This document shows positions 1,987 through 51,978 of a DNA stretch of 53,552 bases, piece by piece; within the stretch, counting starts at the first letter, position 1, and each line of letters begins with the position of its first letter. The notes beneath the pieces are model-generated. The model saw only the letters and a list, made by a program, of their open reading frames with translations. It was not told the DNA's origin and ran no database searches. The translations under genes were made by a program, and so were the position numbers. The stretch is from the IMG/VR virus record IMGVR_UViG_3300046656_000217, positions 1-53,552 of that record; one strand, given 5' to 3'. This DNA comes from a virus (lineage: Duplodnaviria > Caudoviricetes).

Positions 1987-3120
1987 TCACGTACCGGCGG
2001 TCGACCGGACCGAGCACTGAGCCCGCGGGTTGATCCGAAGCTGACCGTAGTACCCGCAGAAGAACAGGTACGCTTGGAGCAACGTGTTCCAGACCGGCCC
2101 TTCCGTCTTGAAGAGCATGTCGTCGTTGCAAAGCATCTGCATCTCGTCGAAGTTGAACCCGTACCCGCGGTTCACCGTGACGTCGAACTCCTGGGTCACT
2201 TCCACGCCGTCGTGGTAGAGCACGCCCGGGAAGCCCATCGAAGTAAGCGTCCCGCCCGCCGTGTCCATGATGACGCCGGCCTGGCCCGTGGTCGAAGCCC
2301 CCCGGCTGACTTCGTACCGCTGGCGGCTGCGCTGGAAGGCCATGAACTGTCGGTACAGTTCCCGGTCCAGCATGAAGCAGTCGAGCATCCCCTGGCGACC
2401 GCCGTTGCGGTGCGAGTGGATGATCGCGAAGGACAGAACCTCTTCGCAGTCGTTCGACCACGCGGCGGTCGAACCGAAAGACGTGTTGTCGTACAGGACC
2501 ACCGGCGGGGTCCAGAAATCGTAGTCGACCGAGCCCGAGCCCCGCGGCCAAGTGTTCGAACCGCTCGACTCGGTCCACGTTCCGCCGAGCGCCCCGAGAG
2601 CCGTCGACAGGCCGGCGTACGTGTCGTTGTTGATCCCGACGTACCCGTTGGTCGCGGCACCCGAGATCGACATCATCGACTCGATGCCCTGCAACTTGTT
2701 CTCGTTCCCGCTCGCGTTGCCGTCCACGTACGGCTGGGAACCGAACTGCTGCTTCATTTCCTTCGCCAGCAACTCGGCCTTACCGGACATGAGGCTGACG
2801 ATCGCCTCGGGCGCCTGGTTGGCCAGAGTTTCCAGCTTCGTGACCGACTCGGGGAGTTGGTACGCGATGTACTGAAGGGTCGGGGACTGGTACCGGTTGA
2901 TCCGGTCGAACACCGGAGTCTGACCGTCCACGTAGGTCTGCATCTGCTTCTGCTTGAACTGAACCTTCCACTCGAACCGGGTGCCACCCTGGTTGTACAG
3001 GATGTTCCCCTTCGACTGAAGCAGCGCGAGGAACTGTTGGAACCGGATCGTGTTGTCCGACACTTCGCGCATGTAATTCGCGATGGTTGTCTGGACTACA
3101 CCTTCCCAGGGCGCTGCCAT
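1987..3120 (-). CDS. Major capsid protein (podovirus-type, HK97 fold)
   Basis: 377 aa; N-terminal 'TTIANYMREVSDN', 'DGNASGNENKLQGI' and C-terminal 'GQLRINPRAQ' patterns typical of this MCP class; follows scaffold gene. Confidence 0.85.
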   Translation of the reverse strand: MAAPWEGVVQTTIANYMREVSDNTIRFQQFLALLQSKGNILYNQGGTRFEWKVQFKQKQMQTYVDGQTPVFDRINRYQSPTLQYIAYQLPESVTKLETLANQAPEAIVSLMSGKAELLAKEMKQQFGSQPYVDGNASGNENKLQGIESMMSISGAATNGYVGINNDTYAGLSTALGALGGTWTESSGSNTWPRGSGSVDYDFWTPPVVLYDNTSFGSTAAWSNDCEEVLSFAIIHSHRNGGRQGMLDCFMLDRELYRQFMAFQRSRQRYEVSRGASTTGQAGVIMDTAGGTLTSMGFPGVLYHDGVEVTQEFDVTVNRGYGFNFDEMQMLCNDDMLFKTEGPVWNTLLQAYLFFCGYYGQLRINPRAQCSVRSTAGT

Positions 3121-3148
3121 GATCTACTCCGATCGAGGTAGGGCGGCT

Positions 3149-4285
3149 CTAGCCCGCCTGCTGGTGAGCCATCGGCAACCGAGAGCCGGGCGTGTAACCC
3201 GCGGCGAGCAAATCCTGAAGCATGGCTTCGCGGATCGACAACTTGTGGGTCGAAGGCGTCGCGCTCGTAGTGGGCGGGACGACCGTTCCCGGCAACGCAC
3301 CGGCGACCCGGTTCAAGAACGCGGTCTTCAGGTCGACCGTCGGCTGCGGTTGGGCGCCCTGCGGAGCGGCCCCGACCGGCACGACCGCCCCGGCGACTGG
3401 CGCCGCGGGCGCCGTCTGCTGGGTCTGGGCCTGGGTCCACGCCCACCGGTGGGCGTAGCTCTTGGCCATGTCGTCGATGAGGACCGGATCCGTCATCCCC
3501 TGATTCATCATGTGCTGTGCGGCCTCGGCCCACTTGTCGCCGACTTCGGTCCGCTTCCGGTACCGCTGGCCCGTGAGGGGATCGGCGACCACGACTTCCT
3601 GGCCCTGGGCGTCCTTCGCGAACATCCACTCGGCATTGCTCTGCATGATCTGCGCGGCGACCGCGGTGTTCCGGGCCTGGGTCTGCTGCTCGGTGAACGC
3701 CTTCTGTGCCTTCTCGGTCGCGGCGGCTTCGTACTTGGCAAGGATCGGCCCGAGAGCCCCTTCCGGATCGGTGGCCAACTTCTTGATCGCGTTGGCCATC
3801 GCCCGCCGGTAGGCGATCACCTGGGACGCGGCACCCGGCGGGGCGCCGGGGATCTCGACCGTGTTACCGTTGGCGTCGGTCTGAACCCACGATTCGAGGT
3901 TCGGATCGATCTCGGGGATGCCGAAGGCGTTGACCTTCGGCGGCGCCGGCGCGGGCGTTGCCGGAGTCGCCGGTGCGGTCTGCTGGGCCTGGCTCGCCCG
4001 GTACCCGAGAGCCGCGTACGGCGTGAGCCGGGCGACTTCCGCTTCCAGCCGAGCCCGGTCCGCCCGGATCTGCGTAAGCTCGGGCGATTCCACCGGTGCC
4101 GCGGGAGTCGGCGGAACGACCGGCACTGTAACCGCCGGGGTAACGGCCGGGACGACCGCTACCGCCGGGGGCCCCGACGCGCCAACGGCGGGGGGGATAA
4201 CCCCCGGCGCTGGCTGGGGTGTAGGAACGACGGTAACCGGTCCGTTGACCGGGGTCGAATTCGTGGTAACAGGGTCCATCGGCAT
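3149..4285 (-). CDS. Capsid scaffolding protein
   Basis: Pro/Ala/Gln-rich, coiled-coil, directly upstream of MCP. Confidence 0.7.
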   Translation of the reverse strand: MPMDPVTTNSTPVNGPVTVVPTPQPAPGVIPPAVGASGPPAVAVVPAVTPAVTVPVVPPTPAAPVESPELTQIRADRARLEAEVARLTPYAALGYRASQAQQTAPATPATPAPAPPKVNAFGIPEIDPNLESWVQTDANGNTVEIPGAPPGAASQVIAYRRAMANAIKKLATDPEGALGPILAKYEAAATEKAQKAFTEQQTQARNTAVAAQIMQSNAEWMFAKDAQGQEVVVADPLTGQRYRKRTEVGDKWAEAAQHMMNQGMTDPVLIDDMAKSYAHRWAWTQAQTQQTAPAAPVAGAVVPVGAAPQGAQPQPTVDLKTAFLNRVAGALPGTVVPPTTSATPSTHKLSIREAMLQDLLAAGYTPGSRLPMAHQQAG

Positions 4286-4495
4286 TGGTCGGTCTCCGTT
4301 TGGCGCGTCGAACGGGGACCAACCTAAGCCGGGATCCGGAATTCACTGACAACTCGGGTGTGACACCCTAGTTCGTGTCGGTGAAATTCTCGCTTTGAGA
4401 ATTCGATGCGCGGAAGCAAACGAGCGCACGGAAGGGAAGATGAGAGAAAGACTTGCGACGAGTGAAATGAACCGCGCTCGGAAGCATCCGCGCGC

Positions 4496-7226: not shown

Positions 7227-7249
7227 TGGCGCGTCCTCGGTTTTGGGGT

Positions 7250-7270
7250 TTGCTCTCAAAGTGATAGCAA
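7250..7270. promoter_or_regulatory. Palindromic site 1, TTGCTCTCA-AAG-TGATAGCAA (candidate parS/operator)
   Basis: One of five near-identical 9-3-9 inverted repeats; intergenic. Confidence 0.75.
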
Positions 7271-9172: not shown

Positions 9173-10441
9173 CTATTCGAACGACGTCCGGAAGTCTTCA
9201 CGGCTCACCACCTGTTCGTGCTCGCCGACCGAGACCTTGATGGGCTCGGTGCCGTTGAGCATGGCCGCGGTGTAGATGTCGACGAACCACTTCGGCATCG
9301 GCCGGGCATTCTTCGGGGCCCCGATCATCGCATTCGCCAAGGCCGGGTCGGACAGGTAAGGATTCGGCCGCGGGTCGTACCCGACGGGGACGCCGCTCAT
9401 GTGCTTTACGGCGTCCGGCGAGTTGTCCCAATACTCCTCCTTCGCCATCTGGATCGCGGCCAGGCTCACCCCGCAGATTATGCACCGGCCGTACTCGATC
9501 CGGTGGCCCGGACACTTCAAGGGGACCGGGGGCGTCGCCCGCAACGAATCCTCGGCCGACTGGATCCGCGACTCCTCCAAATGGACCTGCCGGCCATTTT
9601 GGTGTGCCAGGTAGACGCCGTCGCCGAGCGGCTTGACGATCTCGTAGACCATGTTCGGCGGGTACCCGGTCACCAAGTCCCCCTGCTTGAACTTGTCCTT
9701 CGGCTTGTCGGCCTTCCTGACGATTTCGAGGATGCCCACTTCGTTGACGTACCGCTCGCCGTTCGGGCCCTCCAAGGCCACCTTGTCGCCGGGCAAGATC
9801 TCCCGGACCGGCCAATACGCCGCGTCGTTCCTCGATCCTTTGGCCCGGACCCAATCCCCTACCTCAATAGAAGGGAGGGCCTTCGACTCGTTCGACCAGA
9901 GCGTCGTCGGCTCGACCTTGTCGAACTCGGAGATCGGGCCGTCGACCGTGTTGCCCGACGTGCTCATCGCCTTCACCCATTGGTTGTCGAAGCTCATATC
10001 GATCACTCGGTAATCGACGCCCGGCACGCCCGAGCGACGCGGCCGGACCATGTCCCCTACCCCAATAGAAGGGAGCGGCGTGTCGACCTTCTCGAAGCGG
10101 TCGGGCGGACCGCTGGCCCTCCCGCCGTGCTCGGTCACCGCCGAGATCAAAGCGTCGCCGACGTCCGTTACCCGGTACGCGATTCTCGACCCCCGCGGCC
10201 GGACCAAGTCCCCCCGGCGAAATTCCGGTTTGCTCTCACTTTGAGAGCAAAATGCCCCTTGGTTTTCCGTCGGTTTTGACGGTGACACCGGACCGTCAAC
10301 GGGCGTCACCCACTCCTCGTTGAACAGGTGCAACCGGCCGTCGTCCGTCGACACGACCACGACGTCGTCGTACCAGACGTGGGCCTTCCCTCGACCCGCC
10401 GGGGTCATGACCTCAACCGGCGGTTTCGGCATCACCATCAT
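9173..10441 (-). CDS. Protein with tandem SH3/KOW-like repeats
   Basis: Four modules (FRRGDLVRP, IGVGDMVRP, IEVGDWVRA, FKQGDLVTG) with DNA-level repeats. Confidence 0.65.
   Translation of the reverse strand: MMVMPKPPVEVMTPAGRGKAHVWYDDVVVVSTDDGRLHLFNEEWVTPVDGPVSPSKPTENQGAFCSQSESKPEFRRGDLVRPRGSRIAYRVTDVGDALISAVTEHGGRASGPPDRFEKVDTPLPSIGVGDMVRPRRSGVPGVDYRVIDMSFDNQWVKAMSTSGNTVDGPISEFDKVEPTTLWSNESKALPSIEVGDWVRAKGSRNDAAYWPVREILPGDKVALEGPNGERYVNEVGILEIVRKADKPKDKFKQGDLVTGYPPNMVYEIVKPLGDGVYLAHQNGRQVHLEESRIQSAEDSLRATPPVPLKCPGHRIEYGRCIICGVSLAAIQMAKEEYWDNSPDAVKHMSGVPVGYDPRPNPYLSDPALANAMIGAPKNARPMPKWFVDIYTAAMLNGTEPIKVSVGEHEQVVSREDFRTSFE
10230..10250. promoter_or_regulatory. Palindromic site 2, TTGCTCTCA-CTT-TGAGAGCAA
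   Basis: Perfect 9-3-9 inverted repeat, inside a CDS. Confidence 0.75.
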
Positions 10442-11304: not shown

Positions 11305-11640
11305 TTGCCCCGAGCCCCATCGGGTGCAGGTGCCGCGGGGCTTGTCCCTCATGGGAGGGGGAGTTCATCGGCTCGGGCGGGCTCGGGCTCGGGTGGCGAC
11401 GGGTGAAGGTGCTCGGCTCGGGTGCTGTTGTCCTGTCTACTCTGGGTATCGGGTGTCATCTTGTCCGGTTTCCCTGTCGTTCCGGGCTCGGGAGGGTGTT
11501 AAGCCTGGTTAACAAAGCGCGACTGACATTGTGTTAAGCCTGGTTAGCGCGGATTGTGAGAACGGGAAAGATTGTCCGGGGAATTGCGGGAGGGTGCTCG
11601 GGTGGGAATTACCGGGGAATGCGGTTCGCTGTCTGGTCAA
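11305..11640. promoter_or_regulatory. Divergent control region / possible genome-end or origin region with GCTCGG repeats and a 16-bp direct repeat
   Basis: Strand switch point; GTGTTAAGCCTGGTTA at 11496-11511 and 11531-11546; clustered GCTCGG. Confidence 0.55.
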
Positions 11641-12028: not shown

Positions 12029-12120
12029 CCCGGCCCGTCCTAGTTTCCCCGGTGCTATCGGCCGGGGAATTGTTGGGACGTGCCGATTTCCGGCCCGTTA
12101 ACTCTTGTGAGGGTCTGACG

Positions 12121-13506
12121 ATGAACTTTGCCGATTTAGTTGCAAGCGCTCCGCGGATTACCTTGGATGGGCGCCCCGTTGTGGTTTCCGAGAATCACGA
12201 CATGTCGTCGATTAACTGGGTCGCGGGATTATCCGACCCCGGGGAAATGATCGCTTGCGGCGCCTACCAAGAATTGCGCCGTTTGACGGGTGAGAACGAC
12301 GGGGATTATGCCAAGCGCCTTGTTCCCCTGATTGCTTCCCTCCCACCCGAGCACCGGGAACGGATAACCCGGGCCGGAATCGAGAGCGCGACAAAACGGG
12401 CGGGTCTCAGCATGACGAACGGGCGGGTCGCGGTTATGACTAGCGGGAATATCTCCCCCTGGCATGCGCTCGGAACGCACTTCTCGGGTCCGGTTTCCGG
12501 GGATATGGTCCTAGTTCCTTCCGGTACCAATTTCGACGTTGCCAAGCGGGAATTGGCCTACGAATTCCAAGGGAAGACAATCGCTTCCAAGTGTGCGTGG
12601 TCAATCGTCCGGACCGATACCGGGTTAGAACTCGGTTCGGTCGGGTCGAAATACAAGGTAGTCCAGAATCGGGAAGTGGTCGCGCTTGCCGATTCAATCG
12701 TCGGGGAATTCGGGGCTCGGTTTGAGACCGCGGGCGCCTTAGATGACGGGGCTCGGGTTTGGTATCAAATTGCCTTACCTAAACAGTCGTTCGCGCTGTT
12801 TGGTGGGAAGGTGCGAAATGAGGCAAGCGCCTTGTTTTCGTCATCTCATGACGGATCGGGAGCGCTGCTAGTCGTGCCGACAAGCGAAAACGTGGTTTGC
12901 AAAAATACCCATCGAATCGCGCTGAATAAGGCGCGCGGGAAAGGGATTGCAATCCGCCATACGGGAGACCCCCGAGCGAAAATCGAGGAATGCCGAAAGG
13001 CGCTCGGTTTGGTTGTGAAAGGTGCTGAAGTCTACGCGCAAACCGCCGACGCGCTTTCCCGGGCTCGGCTCGGAAATGAGCGCGTCTACTTCGGGTCGAT
13101 TTTGGATGAGGTTTTAACCGCGACGGAAGCGCAATTGGCCACGGGCCGGGAAGTGTGGGCTCGGTCCGATTCCGACGCGCTTGCGGGTATCATCGGCTCG
13201 GAACAGTCGAAGTATTTGGAGAAGCGCCGGGAAGAATTCGACGGTTTGGTAGAACTCAGGACGACGCTATTGGATGACATGTTGAACCGGTTTAACAGTG
13301 AAAACTGTGGCGCCGGTGGGATGCGGGGAAGCGCGTTTTCTGGGTATATGGCTGTCACGGAAAGCGCCGACCACGGTTTGCTCGGCGGACGACGACAGGG
13401 AAGCGAACGCAAGCGCGAGGAAACGCGGTTTGATTCTGTCACGGTCGGGAAGGCAGACGACATAAAGCAAATTGCTTTCCGGAACGCTAAGACCCTTTCG
13501 GCGTAG
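12121..13506 (+). CDS. DUF932 (TIGR03299-like) phage/plasmid protein
   Basis: 'PWHALG', 'VRTDT..LGSVGSKYKVVQN', 'FETAG.L..G..VW', 'SHDGS', 'VVCKNT', 'IRHTG' motifs; ATG follows conserved leader. Confidence 0.8.
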   Translation: MNFADLVASAPRITLDGRPVVVSENHDMSSINWVAGLSDPGEMIACGAYQELRRLTGENDGDYAKRLVPLIASLPPEHRERITRAGIESATKRAGLSMTNGRVAVMTSGNISPWHALGTHFSGPVSGDMVLVPSGTNFDVAKRELAYEFQGKTIASKCAWSIVRTDTGLELGSVGSKYKVVQNREVVALADSIVGEFGARFETAGALDDGARVWYQIALPKQSFALFGGKVRNEASALFSSSHDGSGALLVVPTSENVVCKNTHRIALNKARGKGIAIRHTGDPRAKIEECRKALGLVVKGAEVYAQTADALSRARLGNERVYFGSILDEVLTATEAQLATGREVWARSDSDALAGIIGSEQSKYLEKRREEFDGLVELRTTLLDDMLNRFNSENCGAGGMRGSAFSGYMAVTESADHGLLGGRRQGSERKREETRFDSVTVGKADDIKQIAFRNAKTLSA

Positions 13507-13770
13507 TTCACCCGAGCCCGAGTTAACCCGAGCACCCGCGGATTTCCCGCGGGTGCTTTCTTTTGCGCTCGAGTGCTCGGGCATTCCCCGGGCTCGGTAA
13601 GGTGCTCGGCAATCGCCCGGGAACCGAGCCGAGCCCGAGCCCGGCGGGTGCTCGGCATTCCGTCGGCTCGGAATGCGAGCCCGAGCCCGAGCCCGGGAAA
13701 TGCGGTTTAATGCGCTCGGGTGCTCTCCGGGAATTCCCGCGGGTGCTCGGGTGCTCGGGTCGATTCCCCT
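13507..13770. repeat. Dense cluster of CCGAGC/GCTCGG hexamers in both orientations
   Basis: More than a dozen copies visible in ~260 bp of non-coding DNA. Confidence 0.75.
13531..13564 (+). terminator. Intrinsic terminator after DUF932 gene
   Basis: AGCACCCGCGG/CCGCGGGTGCT stem followed by TTCTTTT. Confidence 0.7.
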
Positions 13771-13804
13771 GGTCAACCGCCGGTGTGTGTCGGCCGGAGA
13801 TGAA

Positions 13805-13820
13805 CGGCGCGGCGGTTGCT
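13805..13820 (+). promoter_or_regulatory. Sigma54-type -24/-12 promoter
   Basis: CGGCGCG-GCGG-TTGCT matches GG-N10-GC spacing and TTGC element. Confidence 0.55.
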
Positions 13821-13858
13821 TTACGTCGGCCGGGTCTATTTCCTCATGAGGGTCTGAC

Positions 13859-14074
13859 ATGACGACGGAAGCAAGCAAGCCGCGCGGTGAATTCGACCGG
13901 TCAGTCTGGAAGGATTCAGACTTCGCGCTGATCTTCAGCTATTTCCGGGAAACTCGGGAGATATTCAAGAACTGTCCCGAGAGGGCCGGGGAATTCGCGT
14001 CGGTCATGTTGGACGATTGCGAGAGGGCCGGGTCTGCTCTGCTCTGTATCATGCGGGGTTGCGGCGCAGTCTAA
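13859..14074 (+). CDS. Early hypothetical protein
   Basis: ATG directly after TGAGGGTCTGAC leader. Confidence 0.65.
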   Translation: MTTEASKPRGEFDRSVWKDSDFALIFSYFRETREIFKNCPERAGEFASVMLDDCERAGSALLCIMRGCGAV

Positions 14075-14090
14075 CGGCACGTCGGTTGCA
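14075..14090 (+). promoter_or_regulatory. Sigma54-type -24/-12 promoter
   Basis: CGGCACG-TCGG-TTGCA, near consensus TGGCACG-N4-TTGCW. Confidence 0.65.
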
Positions 14091-14148
14091 TCGATGCGAG
14101 CCCGGGGCAATTCCGCCCCGGGCTTTCTTCTTTACTGAGGGTCTGACG

Positions 14149-14421
14149 ATGACGAATCCCATCAATGCTATTGGTGCGATTGACCAATTGACCGGAGAAG
14201 TGGCGCGGCTGTCGTCATTTCTGCGGAATGAGGCGGACGGGATTAAGGACCAGTGGGAAGGACTGAAGCGGTGCGGCGGTGCTCGGGAAGATCATGCGGC
14301 CGAGATTCTGGCCAGACTGCGCATGATCCTGGACGACCTGGCCAAGTTCTGTACTCGCACGTCGGCCGAGATAACGGCCATGAAAGCCGATCCTTTCGAG
14401 CGCAAGCAGGAAGCGGCGTAG
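14149..14421 (+). CDS. Early hypothetical protein
   Basis: Start re-called at MTNPIN after conserved leader. Confidence 0.65.
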   Translation: MTNPINAIGAIDQLTGEVARLSSFLRNEADGIKDQWEGLKRCGGAREDHAAEILARLRMILDDLAKFCTRTSAEITAMKADPFERKQEAA

Positions 14422-14481
14422 GGGATTACTCGGGGCGCCTACTTCGGGCGCCCCGTTCCTTTCTCTCTGAGGGTCTGAACA

Positions 14482-14883
14482 ATGCGGCGAATCTGTACAA
14501 GTTTTGAGACGGTAACGCCGGAGAGTGCGGCCGAAGGTGATTTCTCGGATAGTGGCTGGACCGACAAGGACGGCGAAGAGCTAGACCCGTCGGCCGACGA
14601 TGTGGCCGAGCACGGGACCGAAGAAGCGGCGGCGGTTGTGCTGGCCGTTCGCTTCCTTGAGGACCGGGGATCGGTCGAGCCGTCTAGTTCTCCAACCTGG
14701 CACCCGCGAGTCTGGTACTCGACAACCGATCCGAACATGGACTACGCGACCGGGGCGGAAACTCGCCACTCGTTTCATCTCAAGGGTTATTCAGAGAAAG
14801 AGGAACGGGAGATATACCGGGTGCTGACCCGCCCGCTGGCTGACAAACTACGGGACGCGGGCCGGGCGATCCGCGGAGAGTAA
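14482..14883 (+). CDS. Early hypothetical acidic protein
   Basis: After conserved leader; 'FETVTPESAAEGDFSDSGW'. Confidence 0.65.
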   Translation: MRRICTSFETVTPESAAEGDFSDSGWTDKDGEELDPSADDVAEHGTEEAAAVVLAVRFLEDRGSVEPSSSPTWHPRVWYSTTDPNMDYATGAETRHSFHLKGYSEKEEREIYRVLTRPLADKLRDAGRAIRGE

Positions 14884-14884
14884 G

Positions 14885-14900
14885 CGGCACGTCTCTTGCT
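14885..14900 (+). promoter_or_regulatory. Sigma54-type -24/-12 promoter
   Basis: CGGCACG-TCTC-TTGCT. Confidence 0.65.
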
Positions 14901-14947
14901 TCACACAAGCGCCCCAATCCGGGGCGCTTTCCTTTTGAGGGTCTGAC

Positions 14948-18224: not shown

Positions 18225-18457
18225 CCAAAGCGGAATTCGTGCGGGCTGCGATCCCGCAGCCTATCGCCCTGGGTGGTATGCCGCTGTCCGCCGACCCCCG
18301 GCTCTTCCCGGCCGGGTCGTGCGGCTGGCGGTGGAACGGCTCTCTGTACGTCAAGGTCGGCGGCGACTGGCTGTCCGTCCTGGCTGCCGTCCAGATGACC
18401 GTCATCGGGTCGAGAAAGTGGGAAGCTGACATTGCCGCGATCAGGACGACCGCGTAG
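18221..18457 (+). CDS. Hypothetical protein
   Basis: ATGA coupling. Confidence 0.55.
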   Translation: MTKAEFVRAAIPQPIALGGMPLSADPRLFPAGSCGWRWNGSLYVKVGGDWLSVLAAVQMTVIGSRKWEADIAAIRTTA

Positions 18458-18486
18458 ATTCGATTCCGACGCATGGAGGTTAGCGT

Positions 18487-18684
18487 ATGCTAGTTCTCAG
18501 CATGTCTGAACATTCCGGCGGCGACGACGACATCATCCTAAGAGATGCGGCGACCGGCCGGATTATCTGTGAAATTACACTCGTCGAGGTGCGCGGGAGC
18601 AAAGCCCGGTTGGGCTATGCCGCGCCCGACGACGTCGAACTCAACCGGCGGGCAATCGATCAAAAGAAGCACCCCGCCGGGTGA
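18487..18684 (+). CDS. csrA: CsrA/RsmA-like RNA-binding translational regulator
   Basis: 'MLVLS...ITLVEVRGSKARLGYAAPDDVELNRR' aligns by eye with CsrA (MLVLSR...ITVVEIRGDKVRLGIDAP..V.VHR); GGAGG SD. Confidence 0.75.
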   Translation: MLVLSMSEHSGGDDDIILRDAATGRIICEITLVEVRGSKARLGYAAPDDVELNRRAIDQKKHPAG

Positions 18685-18714
18685 CCTGTCCTTTCTTTCT
18701 CTCTGAGGATTCCC

Positions 18715-21789: not shown

Positions 21790-21790
21790 T

Positions 21791-21828
21791 CCCCTCCCCC
21801 TATCCCCTCTCCCCCTCGGGGAGAGGGG
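21791..21828. repeat. REP/BoxC-like palindromic element
   Basis: Pyrimidine tail plus CCCCTCTCCCC-CTC-GGGGAGAGGGG 11-bp stem. Confidence 0.5.
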
Positions 21829-21844
21829 CCAATCGAGGACCATC

Positions 21845-22141
21845 ATGAACGCCGATGGGATTGGGGATACGTTCGCCGGCCAGCGAATCGACAAGGCCCG
21901 TCTGTCCGCGAAGCGTCGGGCAATCGCCGTTGCGATCTTGGAGCGGGAAAAGATCTGTTTCGAGTCTTGTGCCAATGGCAAAAGACTGTTCGTTCTCTAC
22001 TCGATAGACTTTTGGCCCGGGTCCGAATTGTGGGTCGACAGACACACAAAGCAACGCGGTCGTGGCGTCGCGTCTTTGATTCGCCACATTGACACAACCT
22101 GTCCGTCGGCACGACGGGCGTTGGAGGAATGTTGTGGCTAA
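21845..22141 (+). CDS. Hypothetical protein
   Basis: GAGG SD; overlaps ParB-like start. Confidence 0.45.
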   Translation: MNADGIGDTFAGQRIDKARLSAKRRAIAVAILEREKICFESCANGKRLFVLYSIDFWPGSELWVDRHTKQRGRGVASLIRHIDTTCPSARRALEECCG

Positions 22142-22919
22142 GCTCAAACAACTCAGGCCGAAGATCGATCCGGAGATCTGCGGGTTGCTCCCTCAACCCC
22201 ACGCGGAAGAGCGGGCGCAACTGAAGGCCGACATTGAGATGAACGGCTTGCTCGACGAAGGGATCGTCTGGAAGGAGAACGGCATCCTGTTGGACGGTCA
22301 CACCCGGTTCAAGATCTGCGAAGAGTTGGGCATTCCTTTCCGGTACCAGACTCTCTCGTTCCCGGACCGGCAAGAGGCGATCGATTGGGTCTACAACAAC
22401 CAACTCGCGCGGCGGAACGTGGCGAAAGACGAACGGGCAGTCTTGATAGCGAAGCGGGTGAAGATCCTCAAGGCTCAAGCCGAAGCGGAAAAAGCACTGG
22501 AAAAGCAGGGCGAAAGTTGCTCTCAAAGTGATAGCAAACCGGCCACCGTGCGGGAAATCGCGGAACGTGTAGCGGCCGAGAAGAAGGTGTCGACGGCCAC
22601 GGTTTACCGAGCCGTCGCCAAGGTCGATTCCAACTTCTGCGACCGGTGCGTGCGGACCGGGATGCCGGCGAAGAACTGTCCGAAGTGTGCCGAGAAGCGG
22701 GCCGCGAAGCCCAAGCCGAAGAAGAAGGCGCCCGACAAGGGAAGGGTGCTCATCGACTGGCCGAAGTTCAAGAAGGCATTCCCCGCGGTCGTCCAACTCT
22801 CCGACCACATGCACCGCCACTATCCGAAGGTGATGGAATCCGGTGAGCGGAAGGAGTACGAACGCCACATCGCCGCCATCACCGCCCTGTGGCAATCCTG
22901 GGAGAAGAAGATCAAATGA
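22134..22919 (+). CDS. ParB-like protein (ParB N-terminal domain plus HTH)
   Basis: GTG behind GGAGG; 'LLDGHTRFKIC', 'NQLARRN', HTH 'VREIAERVAAEKKVSTATVYR'. Confidence 0.8.
   Translation: MAKLKQLRPKIDPEICGLLPQPHAEERAQLKADIEMNGLLDEGIVWKENGILLDGHTRFKICEELGIPFRYQTLSFPDRQEAIDWVYNNQLARRNVAKDERAVLIAKRVKILKAQAEAEKALEKQGESCSQSDSKPATVREIAERVAAEKKVSTATVYRAVAKVDSNFCDRCVRTGMPAKNCPKCAEKRAAKPKPKKKAPDKGRVLIDWPKFKKAFPAVVQLSDHMHRHYPKVMESGERKEYERHIAAITALWQSWEKKIK
22517..22537. promoter_or_regulatory. Palindromic site 3, inside ParB-like gene just before the HTH codons
   Basis: TTGCTCTCA-AAG-TGATAGCAA, identical to site 1. Confidence 0.75.
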
Positions 22920-26108: not shown

Positions 26109-27074
26109 ATGACGCGGGTGTATTACAACGAGTTCGATCGCACCGCCGCAGAATGGTTGCGGCAGTTGATCCGTGACGGGCTCATTCCGGGAGGATGGGT
26201 GGATGACCGCAGTATCGAAGAAGTCCGACCGGAAGACATCGAAGGGTACGACCAGTGCCACTTCTTCGCCGGCATCGGTGGATGGGCTTACGCTCTTTCC
26301 CTGGCCGGATGGACCGGAACCGTCTGGACCGGTTCCTGTCCGTGCCAGCCGTTCTCGGCGGCGGGCAAAAGGCTCGGGAATCGAGACGCCCGGAATCTTT
26401 GGCCTGAGTTTCGACGACTCGTCGCTGAGTGCCGCCCTTCAGTGGTCTTTGGAGAACAGGTTGCAAGCGAGGATGGGCGCGACTGGCTCGCCGGAGTACG
26501 GCGTGACGTGGAAGCGGTGGGTTATCGGTTCGGGGCTGCCGATCTGTGCGCTGCGGGCGTGGGAGCGCCCCACATCCGACAGCGGCTCTATTGGGTGGCC
26601 GACGGCCACAGTACGAGACGCCCGGGGGGTGGGTTCTCCTGCAAGAACGGCTCGACTAAAAGCGAGAGGCCACATGCCGTCCATTCTCTGCGAAGTGGCA
26701 GAAATGGCCGGCTGGGCGACGCCGACCCCTCGGGACGCGAAGGACGGGGACTGCACGGACGCGGACGTGCCGACCAACTGTCTGCTGGGCCGGCAAGCGG
26801 TGCGGCTGCCGGCGGGGGGATGGATGACACCGAAATCAGCGGAGCATCAGACGACCACCAAAAGGGGATCCCCCACACTCTACGGTCAAGCCATTGGGAC
26901 GACTGCTACCTCATCCCCTGCACCGACGGGAAGGCGCGGCGTTCTGGATCCGGAGTTTTCCCGCTGGCTCATGGGGTACCCGGCCGCGTGGGGCTTATCC
27001 GGGGCTACGGCAATGCGATCGTGCCGGCTCTCGCGGCGGAATTCGTCCGGGCGTACCAAGAGGCGATAGCGTGA
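26109..27074 (+). CDS. C5-cytosine DNA methyltransferase, main (alpha) frame
   Basis: FFAGIGG (motif I), PCQPFS (IV), EQV (VI), RQRLY (VIII), GYGNAIVP (X). Confidence 0.9.
   Translation: MTRVYYNEFDRTAAEWLRQLIRDGLIPGGWVDDRSIEEVRPEDIEGYDQCHFFAGIGGWAYALSLAGWTGTVWTGSCPCQPFSAAGKRLGNRDARNLWPEFRRLVAECRPSVVFGEQVASEDGRDWLAGVRRDVEAVGYRFGAADLCAAGVGAPHIRQRLYWVADGHSTRRPGGGFSCKNGSTKSERPHAVHSLRSGRNGRLGDADPSGREGRGLHGRGRADQLSAGPASGAAAGGGMDDTEISGASDDHQKGIPHTLRSSHWDDCYLIPCTDGKARRSGSGVFPLAHGVPGRVGLIRGYGNAIVPALAAEFVRAYQEAIA
26173..27069 (+). CDS. Overlapping +1-frame methyltransferase beta subunit (TRD plus motif IX); start uncertain
   Basis: Open for 298 codons; GWPT/GWAT/GWMT repeats and 'LDPEFSRWLMGYPAAW'. 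Confidence 0.65.
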   Translation: MTGSFREDGWMTAVSKKSDRKTSKGTTSATSSPASVDGLTLFPWPDGPEPSGPVPVRASRSRRRAKGSGIETPGIFGLSFDDSSLSAALQWSLENRLQARMGATGSPEYGVTWKRWVIGSGLPICALRAWERPTSDSGSIGWPTATVRDARGVGSPARTARLKARGHMPSILCEVAEMAGWATPTPRDAKDGDCTDADVPTNCLLGRQAVRLPAGGWMTPKSAEHQTTTKRGSPTLYGQAIGTTATSSPAPTGRRGVLDPEFSRWLMGYPAAWGLSGATAMRSCRLSRRNSSGRTKRR

Positions 27075-27598
27075 CCAACGAAGAGTTCTATCAGGCGATG
27101 AAGGCCAAGGGCCAGGTCATCGACGAAGGCCGACCGGTCGGGCTGGCGCTGATTGCCGACGAGCGGAAGAAGAACAACAAGAAACCGCCCCGGAAGCTGG
27201 TCGAGCCCGCGTTCAAGGTCGGGTACGACTCGGTCGAGTTCCTTGTCCCGCTCGCTCTTGAGCCGGCGACGAACGGACCGGCGCTCAAGAAATGGCTGAT
27301 GGGCGTCGCCGCCAAGCACCGGCGGATCGTCACCCGGGCGATCGTCGGCCACCTGCGGGAAACCCTGTTCCTGATCGAAGCCGCCCAAGCCGGCAAGCCG
27401 CTTGTCTGCAAGATCTGCCGCCTCGGCCGCTCGATGGACGACGACAACATTCAGTACCCGGCGAAGTGGGTCCGGGATTCCGTGGCCCTCATGTGCGGAG
27501 TCGATGACAACCTGAAGGGCGTCATCCGGTGGGAGTACGCGCAAGAGCCACGGGCGGTTTACGGCGTGCGGATCCGCTTGTCCCTAGGGTCGCCATGA
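27071..27598 (+). CDS. RusA-like Holliday junction resolvase
   Basis: 'RSMDDDNIQYPAKWVRDSV...VDD' fits D-x-DN-x-K-x3-D...DD pattern. Confidence 0.6.
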   Translation: MTNEEFYQAMKAKGQVIDEGRPVGLALIADERKKNNKKPPRKLVEPAFKVGYDSVEFLVPLALEPATNGPALKKWLMGVAAKHRRIVTRAIVGHLRETLFLIEAAQAGKPLVCKICRLGRSMDDDNIQYPAKWVRDSVALMCGVDDNLKGVIRWEYAQEPRAVYGVRIRLSLGSP

Positions 27599-27891
27599 TC
27601 GAACGCATCACCCGATTCATTGACGGCGAGCCGGTTAGCCGGGAAGTCGTCCTTCGCCGACGGACGCCGATGGAAGAGCGGGAATACTGGTACCTGAAGC
27701 TCGGCCAACTCATGAACGAGTTGCGGGACAAGGACCGGGTGATCCTTGCCCTGGCCGAGCGGATCTTCCTTCAACACGAATTGCTAATGGCCAACAGCCT
27801 TCGCCGCCATCTCGATCAGGAAGACGATGAGACCCCAGCCGAGCCGGAATCCCATGCCCACGAAGATCGCCCAAATGAACGTGCCGAGTAA
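27595..27891 (+). CDS. Hypothetical protein
   Basis: ATGA coupling. Confidence 0.5.
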   Translation: MIERITRFIDGEPVSREVVLRRRTPMEEREYWYLKLGQLMNELRDKDRVILALAERIFLQHELLMANSLRRHLDQEDDETPAEPESHAHEDRPNERAE

Positions 27892-28345
27892 GCCGGTGAG
27901 GCTGGTCGACTGTTGCGGAATGTTATCGGGCATGAAACGACTCCCGGAAAAGTGGGGCGACGTTAGCCGAATTGTACTCGCCGCGCGGTCCGGAGTTGGA
28001 TAGAGTCTTAAACGCCGAAGGCCCGGGTGCTACCCCGAGCCTTCGACTTGGTTCGAGTCGGCCGATACCCGACATGAACCCGCCGAAGTGATTTAACCAC
28101 TTTCGACGGTTCACGTCTAGTTAGCCAACCCGAATCTTCACAAGTGAGGCAAGCAGCGGGTGAGGCCCGCGTGCGGCTTCAGGATTGCCCCACCGGGCAG
28201 TAGGCTCATGGCCGAGCGCCTGAAGCATAGCCCACACCCTGACCCCGCGGGGGGTAGGGGGGTAACGTACCTGTGCAGTTCATCCGGCGCATGCCGGTGA
28301 ACGAATCGAGAACAGCCAACAGCCGAAAGGCACCTACGAGGGTAA
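27892..28345 (+). ncRNA. Candidate large structured non-coding RNA (~450 nt; strand assumed from flanking operon)
   Basis: No credible plus-strand ORF; about ten hairpins/multiloops visible, including G-U pairs and a GCC-GAAA-GGC tetraloop. Confidence 0.6.
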
Positions 28346-28348
28346 GAA

Positions 28349-28696
28349 ATGACGGAATCGACTCTCAGTGATCGGCTTGATGAACTTGCCGAGAGCAAGG
28401 CCAAGTCGTGGCTGCGGGCGGTGAAGAGTGCGATCGACGCCGCCCTGAAGCCCTACTACCGGCTCGAACAGAACGGCGACGAGTTCTTCGGTGAAGTGAT
28501 TGGGGCGATCATCGCCGAGATCTACGCCAAGCATTACCCGAGCCGGGAAACCTTCGACGAGCGGGCGATCGACCTGAGTTTGGTGGAAGCCGCCTACCGT
28601 CGACGGATCTTGGCGGAAGTTCTGGAAAAGCTGCCGCTGGTGAAGGAACTGTCCATGATGGGCCAGAACCACGTCATCCTCGAACCCACGGAGTAA
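28349..28696 (+). CDS. Hypothetical protein
   Basis: GAGGGT SD; operon position. Confidence 0.6.
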   Translation: MTESTLSDRLDELAESKAKSWLRAVKSAIDAALKPYYRLEQNGDEFFGEVIGAIIAEIYAKHYPSRETFDERAIDLSLVEAAYRRRILAEVLEKLPLVKELSMMGQNHVILEPTE

Positions 28697-28699
28697 GCC

Positions 28700-28960
28700 A
28701 TGACCGTTCTACCGATCACGATTCTGGACAAGGGCGAGAGCGACGACACGAAACTCCCGGAAGGGACGAAGGTCGTGTACGGCGAACTCGACCACGTCTG
28801 GATCATGAACGACGGCACCGAAAGCGGGAAGCCGGCGGTCATGCTCCGGACGAAGTTGCCGGACGGGACGCTGGTGTTGTGCCAGACGACCGGCAACATG
28901 TTCAACATGGCCGCGGGTGCGCTGCGGGGTGCGTGCCAGCGGTGGGGCCACAAACTCTAG
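28700..28960 (+). CDS. Hypothetical protein
   Basis: GGAG SD; 'GTESGKPAV' small phage family pattern. Confidence 0.6.
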   Translation: MTVLPITILDKGESDDTKLPEGTKVVYGELDHVWIMNDGTESGKPAVMLRTKLPDGTLVLCQTTGNMFNMAAGALRGACQRWGHKL

Positions 28961-29326: not shown

Positions 29327-29347
29327 TTGCTCTCACTTTGAGAGCAA
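29327..29347. promoter_or_regulatory. Palindromic site 4, TTGCTCTCA-CTT-TGAGAGCAA
   Basis: Perfect inverted repeat, intergenic. Confidence 0.75.
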
Positions 29348-29365
29348 ACCCAGAGGGCGAGAGCC

Positions 29366-29601: not shown

Positions 29602-30030
29602 ATGACGAAGCCGAATTACGAGACCATCGTTTTGCAAGTCGCCAACGTCGCGGTCAGTGAAGCCATTGACCGGCGGAAGTTGCTGATCGCCCGGAATCAG
29701 GTCGAGATCTTGGCCGCGATGGAGATGATGTCCGGGAATCTGGTCGTCTACCTTCAGGCGTATCTCGCGGCCGGGGATCGTCAGCAAGTCGGGGAGGACA
29801 CGGTCACCTACCTTGCCGACTGGCGTCAATGGTTCAAGGCCCGGTGGTTCAACAACCGGATGCTGCGGTGGCTACTGCGGAAGTACCCGCTGCGACACAA
29901 GACGATCAAGGTGCCGACGGTGTGGATCACCCGGGTCTGCCCGCACTTGGCAATCCCTGTCGGCAGCAACAAGTTCGAAATCCTGAAGCCGCACTTCGAT
30001 CATTGCCTCACGAAAGACCAACCGCGATGA
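29602..30030 (+). CDS. Hypothetical protein
   Basis: GAGG SD; coupled to recombinase. Confidence 0.55.
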   Translation: MTKPNYETIVLQVANVAVSEAIDRRKLLIARNQVEILAAMEMMSGNLVVYLQAYLAAGDRQQVGEDTVTYLADWRQWFKARWFNNRMLRWLLRKYPLRHKTIKVPTVWITRVCPHLAIPVGSNKFEILKPHFDHCLTKDQPR

Positions 30031-31094
30031 CCGAGCCCATCTACAACCAGCGGATCCGCCCCTTCACTACCCGGAGTCGGGCGGCGGACAAGCCGACCGG
30101 TACCCGGTGCTGGGGGTACATGCGGGTGAGCACCGACAAGCAAGTCGACGGGACGTCCCTCGAAAGCCAAGAACTCGACATTCGCCGCGAGTACGAGAAG
30201 TGGAAGAACACCCACACGATGATGGGCATTACGAAGGACGTCACCCCCGGCGGAAAGACCCGGTTCTGTGACCGGCAAGGCGGGCGGGAACTGCTCGGGA
30301 AGATGGTCCCCGGCGACGTGCTCATCATCTCCAAGGTCGACCGCTTCAGCCGGTCCGTGGTCGACGGGCTCAACGAGATGCGGGAGATCTGGCGGAAGGG
30401 GATCACGATCGTCTGTCTCGACATGGGCGGCGAGCCGGTGTCGTTCGGGGACAACGGCGAGATCCTGTTGTTCATGCTGCTCCTCGGGGCCCAAATGGAG
30501 AACAAGCGGCGCAGCGAGCGGTCGAAGGAATCCTGGGCCCGGGAGAAAGCGGCGGGGATCAAGCGGAAGCGAAGCCCGATCGCCAACCCGCCGTACGGGT
30601 ACGTGGGTGGGGTGATCGACTGGCACTGGCGGACGTTCGTTGTGCGATTACGCAACATGTTCGATTTCGCCTGCCGCAACCTCGGTTACTCGAAGTGCGA
30701 CACCCGGCACCTGAAGCTCGCCGAGAGGTACGGGCTGCTCTGGTGGAAGAGTTACAGCAAGACCGGGCCGAACGGTCGCCGGCCGGAAGCGATCTCGGCC
30801 GACTACTACCTGCGGTGGTTCCGGTGCGAAGACGAACTGTCCAAGACGCACCCGTTCGTGCTGAAGATCGAGACCCCGTGGGTGGAAGATTTCATCGCCG
30901 GTCGGCTCAAGCCACTGCCCAAACCAATAAACCCTTTCTTCAGTCCCATTAACTCCCCAGGAGAGAACGATGCTCTTGCAACAGTTAACGCCGACCGAAG
31001 CGGCCCGACAGATCCGGGAGAACCTACAGCGGGGGGAGGGCCGGGTGCAGACCTTCCCGGTCATGGTGCTCCCGGACAACACCCTGCACTCTGA
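30027..31094 (+). CDS. Serine recombinase (resolvase/integrase family)
   Basis: 'GYMRVSTDKQ...SLESQ', 'GDVLIISKVDRFSRS', 'PPYGY'; start re-called at MTEPIY. Confidence 0.85.
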   Translation: MTEPIYNQRIRPFTTRSRAADKPTGTRCWGYMRVSTDKQVDGTSLESQELDIRREYEKWKNTHTMMGITKDVTPGGKTRFCDRQGGRELLGKMVPGDVLIISKVDRFSRSVVDGLNEMREIWRKGITIVCLDMGGEPVSFGDNGEILLFMLLLGAQMENKRRSERSKESWAREKAAGIKRKRSPIANPPYGYVGGVIDWHWRTFVVRLRNMFDFACRNLGYSKCDTRHLKLAERYGLLWWKSYSKTGPNGRRPEAISADYYLRWFRCEDELSKTHPFVLKIETPWVEDFIAGRLKPLPKPINPFFSPINSPGENDALATVNADRSGPTDPGEPTAGGGPGADLPGHGAPGQHPAL

Positions 31095-51938: not shown

Positions 51939-51957
51939 GGTTCGTCCTCGGGATAGT

Positions 51958-51978
51958 TTGCTCTCACTTTGATAGCAA
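51958..51978. promoter_or_regulatory. Palindromic site 5, TTGCTCTCA-CTT-TGATAGCAA
   Basis: Overlaps stop codon of FmdB-like gene, just upstream of adaptor gene. Confidence 0.75.

Follow-up and report, generated by a model that had tools for sequence, protein, structure and literature searches.

We examined a noncoding interval in a phage contig, the IMG/VR virus record IMGVR_UViG_3300046656_000217, which was analyzed over its complete length (53,552 nt, hereafter the window; linear, estimated completeness 82%). An earlier note, made from the letters alone, had described about 450 nt at positions 27892–28345 as densely base-paired noncoding DNA and had proposed a large phage noncoding RNA or a structured replication origin. 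We found that the true gap is 27934–28348 (415 nt), a divergent spacer between an overlooked small gene on the minus strand and a plus-strand gene that begins at 28349. Within this gap, a core of ~125 nt (28014–28136) is a real, locally exceptional, minus-strand-biased RNA-like structure that belongs to no known family. Our preferred explanation, which we hold tentatively, is that the core is a cis-acting structured leader of the mRNA of the small gene, whose product is a membrane protein.

The Folding Signal Lies in a Minus-Strand Core

Taken as minus-strand RNA, the stretch 28005–28140 folds to −78.5 kcal/mol, compared with a mean of −42.8 kcal/mol for its shuffled versions (z score −8.96; none of 200 shuffles as good), and it tops the 3144 GC-corrected 136-nt window-strands of the contig for stability. 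Read as plus-strand RNA, the same stretch reaches −51.4 kcal/mol (z −4.44). The minus-strand fold consists of two hairpins. The long irregular hairpin (28050–28136) has 37 pairs, 7 of them G-U, closed by a 3-nt loop at 28093–28095; the GC hairpin (28014–28047) has 14 pairs, including 10 G-C or C-G and 2 G-U, and a 6-nt loop. The 9 G-U pairs among the 51 pairs of the core become C-A mismatches on the plus strand, and the core is therefore 27 kcal/mol weaker there. The unpaired positions include a single A-C mismatch, and this excess of G-U over A-C is to be read together with the folding program's own preference for G-U. After the GC hairpin comes the tail G-UUU-AAGACU, with three consecutive U, and U residues follow the hairpin on the minus strand only. 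A terminator scan of 27400–28800 returned no terminator-like site, the GC hairpin failing the T-tail rule; the same scan recovered clear terminators with 9- to 12-pair stems and T-rich tails at 13530, 14098, 14431, and 14907 (13530–14929).

Over the whole interval (27892–28348), the predicted fold was better than all 100 dinucleotide shuffles on both the plus strand (−198.1 kcal/mol, z −3.68) and the minus strand (−206.3 kcal/mol, z −5.42). Ranked among 232 sliding 457-nt windows of the contig, corrected for GC, it came 2nd on the minus strand and 14th on the plus strand. The dense base-pairing reported for the interval is thus real by comparison with shuffled sequence, but the excess is confined to the ~125-nt core. 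In 120-nt windows, 28000–28159 alone was exceptional (z −7.08 and −6.09 on the minus strand; −3.38 and −1.88 on the plus strand), and all windows starting at 28120–28280 had z scores between −0.49 and −2.73. The right half of the gap (28137–28348) scored z −1.37 on the minus strand (16 of 200 shuffles as good) and −2.75 on the plus strand (1 of 200). It holds ordinary hairpins of near-background stability at 28153–28173, 28231–28262, and 28278–28302, a three-way junction at 28176–28226, and a GCC-GAAA-GGC hairpin at 28322–28331, 17 nt before the ribosome-binding site of the gene at 28349. Promoters for both directions presumably lie in this half.

Every stem named in the earlier note lies where the note placed it. 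They comprise CGACTCC 27938 with GGAGTTG 27992, CGAAGGC 28016 with GCCTTCG 28039, CGACT 28044 with AGTCG 28056, TGAACC 28075 with GGTTCA 28108, and GAAGTG 28085 with CACTTT 28098 (one G-T), followed by GCGGG 28156 with CCCGC 28166, GCTTCAGG 28176 with CCTGAAGC 28219, GTTCA 28278 with TGAAC 28298, CCGGC 28284 with GCCGG 28293, and the GCC-GAAA-GGC hairpin. A long-range pairing suggested between 27900–27910 and 28115–28126 did not hold: the complementarity is partial, and the left arm lies in coding sequence.

An Rfam search of the whole window, one of the checks proposed in the note, gave no match at the gathering score; at E ≤ 10, the sole match in 27500–28700 was H19_1 (E 6.8), a chance match outside the gap. 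ARAGORN found no transfer RNA (tRNA) or transfer-messenger RNA gene in the 53,552 nt. The note's idea of a structured RNA-like element of no known family was borne out for the noncoding, significantly structured core.

An Overlooked Gene for a Small Membrane Protein Delimits the Gap

On its left side, the gap is bounded by a minus-strand gene (27933–27784; ATG at 27933–27931, stop at 27786–27784) for a 49-aa protein, P0001. A Shine–Dalgarno-like GGGAG at 27941–27945 (minus strand) stands 7 nt ahead of the ATG, and comparable GAGGG motifs stand ahead of other contig genes (in the repeats TGAGGGTCTGAC..ATGA). The signal from GC content at third codon positions (GC3) moves into the frame of the small gene at 27780–27900. 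Two homologs are 84% and 70% identical to P0001, with the C-terminal 25 residues invariant, and the wider family consists of 39- to 56-aa proteins that share a core of roughly TFxWAIxVGMGFRxGWGLI (12 representatives, E ≤ 1e-3). We aligned P0001 and P0005 with eight short representatives (39–87 aa), omitting P0011, P0012, and P0015 (1626, 762, and 379 aa) because their match is limited to a short hydrophobic stretch; G28, G32, G34, and A44 are invariant in this alignment. The hydropathy of P0001 peaks at 2.02 over residues 22–40, and AlphaFold predicts one helix at residues 12–47 with a mean predicted local distance difference test score of 85. The stretch 27933→27784 is a real gene for a single-helix, glycine-zipper membrane protein. 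Neither P0001 nor P0005 had a Pfam match at E ≤ 1, there was no PHROG match, and the nearest Protein Atlas clusters are unnamed (scores ≤0.81). This family of 40- to 56-aa phage proteins is conserved and lies outside the coverage of Pfam and PHROGs.

Homologs of the small gene occur in four phage contigs (L024–L027, at ~2300–3600 in each locus). The neighbor of the homolog in L027 is a holin-like protein (phrog_199, E 2.9e-17), and other neighbors appear from their sequences to have N-terminal hydrophobic segments and coiled-coil-like regions. Because the homologs adjoin holin-like and membrane-type proteins, a lysis-related or membrane role is suggested for the P0001 family, which would belong to lysis cassettes. 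A lone copy in reverse orientation, with 415 nt of sequence upstream of it, is a peculiarity of the lineage studied here. Searches with two small-protein alignments found no relatives in viral, metagenome, or genome contigs (A1) and none in genome contigs (A2). Run against 252 genomes from the family of the best helicase hit, A2 gave weak matches in five, all inside 237- to 329-aa frames, which we did not accept as homologs.

With this gene in place, the noncoding description stands for 27934–28348; the 42 nt at 27892–27933 are the start of the minus-strand gene. GC by codon phase is flat over 27900–28340, and none of the four longest ORFs inside the gap has a Pfam match. The relative X12 carries indels of +1, −1, −1, and +2 within 28062–28090 (net +1), and the 22 substitutions listed for the gap are distributed 11/7/4 over the three codon phases, compared with 8 of 15 at third positions in the gene at 28349. 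As far as can be told, the gap is noncoding.

Relatives Are Mosaic Across the Gap

Our comparative material was a table from four public sequencing runs, interpreted over the parts of the stretch that it covers. The relatives are mosaics, and their similarity to the window breaks inside the gap at 27969 (X5), 28050 (X6), ~28062 and 28285 (X12), and 28311 (X5). In X6, both arms of the 14-pair hairpin are retained around a different and longer loop (in the loose end before 28050). In one diverged X12 contig, the hairpin at 28278–28302 keeps its inner stem, with the third inner pair changed from G-C to C-G, and has a new loop. X5, which is diverged left of 27969, again has, on the minus strand, a GGAG that precedes an ATG by ~7 nt, and its CCGGAG could pair with the retained CUCCGG, as read from a loose end of 30 letters. 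X6 shows no listed substitution over 28125–28208 and 8.0 listed changes per 100 nt over 28050–28124, vs. 3.9 in the neighboring gene. Folded as minus-strand RNA, 28012–28120 reaches −62.0 kcal/mol in the window, −58.7 in X6, and −53.3 in X12; plus-strand values for the versions of the core are −44.6 to −46.3 kcal/mol (X6 −44.6, X12 −46.3), the minus-strand fold being stronger throughout. On these sequences, comparative support for functional hairpins is weak and mixed.

Wider searches were made from the neighboring genes and from the DNA itself. The protein at 26894–27598 has relatives at three distant loci (L017–L019), none with similarity to the gap. Relatives of the helicase, at 15 viral loci (L002–L016) and three genome loci (L028–L030), have only the replication module in common with the window, and nhmmer, blastn, and tblastn searches of the helicase-relative loci for the gap and its neighbors returned no homolog. 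A blastn search of a phage database gave no match. DNA patterns built on the 14-pair hairpin hit two viral contigs and two metagenome contigs, which we rejected as chance matches of the pattern alone. A DNA query of the 252 genomes mentioned above returned 21- to 48-nt pieces in 24 of them (per-genome E 7.5e-4 to 0.01), which is chance level. The lineage is nearly alone in the collections searched.

A Candidate Leader and Its Rivals

In the explanation that we tentatively prefer, the small gene would be transcribed leftward from a promoter somewhere in 28137–28348, and its mRNA would carry a long 5′ leader. In that leader, the core (28136→28014) would form the 37-pair hairpin and then, directly, the 14-pair GC hairpin, ~80 nt ahead of the ribosome-binding site. 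Its role would be the cis control of a potentially membrane-damaging protein. The long double-stranded stem would be the kind of substrate that is cut by double-strand-specific RNases, such as RNase III, and the GC hairpin, together with the few U residues after it, may serve as a leaky stop or a 3′/5′ stability element; the leader would thereby set the amount of translatable mRNA. We infer minus-strand transcription, the position of the promoter, and every step of this mechanism from sequence. A more elaborate version, which seems distinctly unlikely, is a self-contained type I toxin–antitoxin-like cassette or lysis timer of a planctomycete phage, in which a 49-aa pore-former of holin neighborhoods would be silenced by a 125-nt double-hairpin leader, representing a new RNA family, and also by antisense RNA that the convergent early operon would supply across the final 108 nt of the gene. 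If such a cassette existed, processing of the long stem would free the block and so time membrane damage or exclude superinfecting phages.

Several observations weigh against a leader. Over the full 457 nt the strand difference is ordinary, with 54 of the 232 windows more minus-biased, so we confine the strand argument to the core. In the proximal leader (27934–28013, minus strand), a weak helix is predicted in which ACUCC (27996–27992) pairs with the ribosome-binding site, and this masking helix, a prediction only, folds no better than chance (27925–28015; z −0.05, 82 of 200 shuffles as good). A scan of 27400–28800 for sigma-70-type promoters gave no match, and the GC hairpin lacks the T-rich tail of the phage's own clear terminators. 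Variation is greatest in the long hairpin, where changes in X12 and X6 cluster. Placed on the minus-strand fold, the 12 listed substitutions of X12 divide into 3 at unpaired positions, 2 that keep a pair, and 7 that break one (indels ignored), and the 12 of X6 divide into 6 unpaired, 3 keeping, and 3 breaking; the inner hairpin of X12 weakens from −27.6 to −19.5 kcal/mol. The X6 contig shares 28050–28703 with the window and not the sequence to the left, a block that would tie the hairpins to the right-hand gene at least as much as to the small gene. All four of the other phage loci place the small gene in a same-strand operon with no long leader (0–133 nt from the preceding ORF), and because of this arrangement we conclude that the leader is not a conserved companion of the small-gene family.

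The stability and strand bias of the core would also fit a stand-alone minus-strand small RNA of ~125–330 nt, starting in 28137–28348 and ending at the 14-pair hairpin near 28012, that serves as a trans regulator or decoy while the 80 nt between it and the small gene hold a separate promoter for that gene. A long 5′ hairpin followed by a terminal GC hairpin and UUU is how bacterial small RNAs are usually laid out, and a TACAAT hexamer on the minus strand (~27977–27972, ~40 nt before the ATG) is kept, on our reading of the sequence, where the block that X5 conserves comes to its end. The hexamer has no −35 partner and no promoter match, however, no Rfam family was matched, and the tail of three consecutive U failed the scan that finds canonical terminators elsewhere in the phage; we consider a small RNA of this kind unlikely. 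Function might instead reside on the plus strand, either in an inter-cistronic or 5′ untranslated part of the operon, with hairpins for mRNA processing or stability, or in a promoter and leader of the gene at 28349. Both long flanking genes are on this strand, which makes read-through likely, the right half folds slightly better on it, and the GAAA tetraloop hairpin lies close ahead of the ribosome-binding site of 28349. X6 also shares its stretch up to 28703 as one block that includes the segment of no listed change, and its six changes listed in 28209–28310 fall, on the plus-strand fold, at five unpaired positions and one wobble-compatible position. Against this stand the core, the sole exceptional part, with its 9 pairs lost to C-A mismatches, and the rank of the interval, just 14th of 232 on the plus strand; we rate a plus-strand function as quite unlikely. 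The single large, ornate phage noncoding RNA of ~450 nt envisaged in the earlier note, in the manner of GOLLD or ROOL, is highly improbable. The whole interval does beat shuffled sequence on both strands and many of its stems exist, but there is no Rfam match and no tRNA nearby, the left 42 nt are coding, the structure signal is limited to a core whose favored strand is opposite to that of the flanking genes, and relatives are mosaic across the interval.

At the DNA level, the gap might contain a recombination site at one end of a segment that the adjacent serine recombinase could invert, or hold a strand-specific hairpin for single-strand initiation or an origin, a reading that we find improbable. 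A 16-nt exact inverted repeat has its left copy at 28171–28186 (plus strand), within the X6 stretch of no listed change, and its right copy at 29979–29994 (minus strand), 33 nt upstream of ATG 30027, the likely true start (rather than 29829) of a 355-aa serine recombinase (30027–31094). The recombinase matches PF00239 (E 8.3e-22), phrog_125 "DNA invertase" (E 6.8e-27), and phrog_95 "integrase," and it has no relative in viral contigs. The position of the right copy is notable. The two copies could bound a 1.8-kb invertible segment or be due to chance: the contig has six unrelated exact inverted pairs of 16–18 nt, which puts 16 nt in the range of chance here, the flanks of the copies do not align, no dyad symmetry is seen in the site, and the recombinase is longer than classical invertases. 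No joint or inverted form appeared in the four runs, where the examined stretch ended at 28900, short of the right copy, and where contigs drop rare forms. Other repeats shared between the gap and the rest of the contig are just 10–16 nt exact or at most 30 nt at 80–94% identity, with chance E values. A DNA-level element would gain from the location in a replication/recombination block and from the stability of the minus-strand core under DNA parameters (z −5.93). However, GC is 0.59–0.60 across the gap with no AT-rich dip, cumulative GC skew rises monotonically with no turn, and direct repeats in the gap are weak (24-nt copies at 67–79% identity only); the structured replication origin suggested earlier found no footing in these features, and a better origin-like array lies at 13507–13860. 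It is also conceivable, if doubtful, that the gap has no dedicated function and is a recombination scar between mosaic modules, its hairpins being remnants of former terminators or palindromes. The breaks in similarity inside the gap, the variability of the long hairpin, the background-like folding of most of the gap, and the lack of a relative in any contig collection searched all fit a scar. Against a scar, a z score of −8.96 and first place among 3144 window-strands would be hard to reach by accident, the 9-to-1 ratio of G-U to A-C points to selection on one RNA strand (with the program's preference for G-U noted above), and two hairpins keep their stems while their loops are replaced.

The sequence of the element is new and its kind familiar: a structured leader or something small-RNA-like. 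If the leader explanation is true, a Planctomycetota phage would have a small membrane protein under RNA control, and there would be a handle on a conserved 40- to 56-aa phage protein family outside Pfam and PHROGs. We regard the element as a plausible, unproven cis-regulatory structure in one phage lineage, of modest wider importance. For "noncoding gaps" of high-GC phages, reverse-strand mini-genes should be checked before an RNA gene is proposed, and fold significance should be localized and compared between strands.

Genomic Context and Other Features of the Contig

The phage's host is likely a planctomycete. The phage helicase is 51% identical to that of a Gemmataceae metagenome-assembled genome and 40% identical to those of a Planctomycetaceae and a Gammaproteobacteria metagenome-assembled genome (three relatives among eight candidate stretches), and near-identical DNA is present in soil and rhizosphere sequencing runs, with no RNA run among those listed. 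The minus strand carries the genes up to ~10.4 kb and again beyond 33.4 kb; between 10.8 and 33.4 kb they lie on the plus strand. The gene products include a major head protein, internal virion proteins, and the helicase, the recombination proteins ERF and YqaJ, DUF932, an AAA ATPase, a RecA-dependent nuclease, a C5 methylase, and the serine recombinase. The gap sits within the replication/recombination block (ERF, YqaJ, helicase, RecA-dependent nuclease). The operon around it is less tightly packed than the earlier note had it: the plus-strand block contains several other ORF-poor gaps of ~250–350 nt, for example at 13507–13858, 18430–18714, and 21790–22088 (from the ORF list with a GC3 filter).

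Upstream of the gap, a plus-strand ORF (27529–27891) encodes 120 aa from a GTG start; the stored protein, P0017, has 98 aa and would start at M23 (27595). GC3 supports this ORF at 27600–27780 and weakens past 27780. Its protein is an orphan, for which the protein database gave just the window's own record and viral contigs gave nothing. The tail of the ORF and the end of the small gene form a convergent overlap of 108 nt (27784–27891), in which the acidic tail of the plus-strand product is the antisense of the P0001 membrane helix and GC3 favors the minus-strand gene. Downstream, the plus-strand gene at 28349–28696 encodes a 115-aa orphan and has GAGGG 8 nt before its ATG. No relative of its protein was found in viral or genome contigs, and its cluster stands alone in a set of 5.8 billion proteins. 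Among its relatives in the sequencing runs, 8 of 15 listed differences are at third codon positions, and a diverged X12 contig (in the loose end behind 28357) continues in frame from the start codon with a similar peptide.

Elsewhere in the contig, 13507–13860 holds a dense array of short repeats (CCCGAGC/GCTCGGG/GGTGCTCGG) in both orientations, between the DUF932 gene (12052–13506) and a small plus-strand ORF. It is the best-folding plus-strand 457-nt window (residual z −4.58) and starts with the canonical terminator at 13530–13558. The array looks like an iteron- or operator-type set of binding sites and appears a better candidate for an origin or centromere than the gap. A palindromic motif of ~22 nt, TTTGCTCTCA..TGAGAGCAAA, occurs five times (7246–7270, 10228–10251, 22517–22537, 29327–29348, and 51956–51972), partly in coding regions, with one copy intergenic and 1 kb right of the gap; it may be the binding site of a phage regulator. 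A 15- to 17-nt start context, TGAGGGTCTGAC(G)ATGA, precedes six early plus-strand genes (12108, 13847, 14136, 14936, 15973, and 16915), which suggests a shared, strongly conserved ribosome-binding context. The strongest folding strand asymmetry of the contig is at 11323–11530 (136 nt; plus strand −59.9 vs. minus strand −25.2 kcal/mol), at a gene junction and adjoining a 16-nt direct repeat (11496, 11531). A second unusually stable plus-strand 136-nt stretch is at 4251–4420 (residual z ~−3.6), in the gap after the minus-strand ORF 3149–4285.

Comparison with Known Systems

In the available sections of one account (10.1101/2024.12.08.627333), GOLLD members are often >800 nt long, and phage and prophage genomes encode both GOLLD and ROOL, in many cases close to tRNA islands. 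The region described here is likewise phage-borne, noncoding, and rich in hairpins. It differs in being far smaller (a gap of 415 nt), in matching no covariance model, and in having no tRNA neighbors, and we have no evidence in it of pseudoknots or conserved architecture.

Among phage mRNA processing and stability hairpins are the RNase III sites of T7 early and late mRNAs and the sites of lambda sib retroregulation. Like the core, they are long, irregular, intergenic double-stranded hairpins, and they work in cis from a single strand, as is proposed for the core; unlike it, they are shorter and lie on the main operon strand, whereas the favored strand here is antisense to the surrounding genes. 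In the lambda late leader, 6S RNA terminates at tR′, before the holin gene is reached. The 14-pair GC hairpin resembles such a terminator or attenuator in standing shortly upstream of a small membrane gene of holin neighborhoods, with U residues after it on that strand only. It differs in having only three consecutive U and in failing the scan that finds the phage's own terminators, and the only competing antiterminator fold that we could find is a 5-pair alternative, CGACU/AGUCG. The serine-invertase switches (Hin/hix, Gin/gix, and Cin/cix) have inverted repeats that bound a segment adjoining the recombinase, with one repeat just upstream of it, and the 16-nt pair here would have a similar layout. 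The present pair shares only 16 nt, a length that occurs by chance in this contig, shows no dyad symmetry, and accompanies a recombinase of 355 aa.

The leader explanation also has points of comparison in type I toxin–antitoxin systems such as tisB/istR-1, zorO/orzO, shoB/ohsC, and hok/sok. According to the available sections of three papers (PMC3919570, PMC2887945, PMC4147584), type I toxins have long structured 5′ untranslated regions and hidden ribosome-binding sites. The available part of the first of them puts the 5′ untranslated region of zorO at ~180 nt, describes the ribosome-binding site of tisB as hidden by structure, and has type I antitoxin RNAs overlapping the 5′ untranslated region, the 3′ untranslated region, or the coding sequence of the toxin (PMC3919570). 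P0001 differs from these toxins in having no Pfam toxin-family match, the helix at its ribosome-binding site is not significant, and its homologs sit as normal members of operons, next to holin-like genes. Scans of the locus turned up neither a discrete small RNA that could be an antitoxin nor a promoter or terminator for one, and there is no convincing complementarity between the leader and a divergent RNA, only 12- to 24-nt direct repeats at 79–92% identity. An antisense RNA is possible in principle, given that the convergent plus-strand ORF covers the final 108 nt of the small gene. P0001 is, like the toxins, a hydrophobic, single-helix protein of <60 aa; its gene is preceded on its own strand by a long stretch of strong folding, and it forms a lone unit in a mobile element. 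By analogy, the leader model would match the way in which other small membrane-active proteins are held in check.

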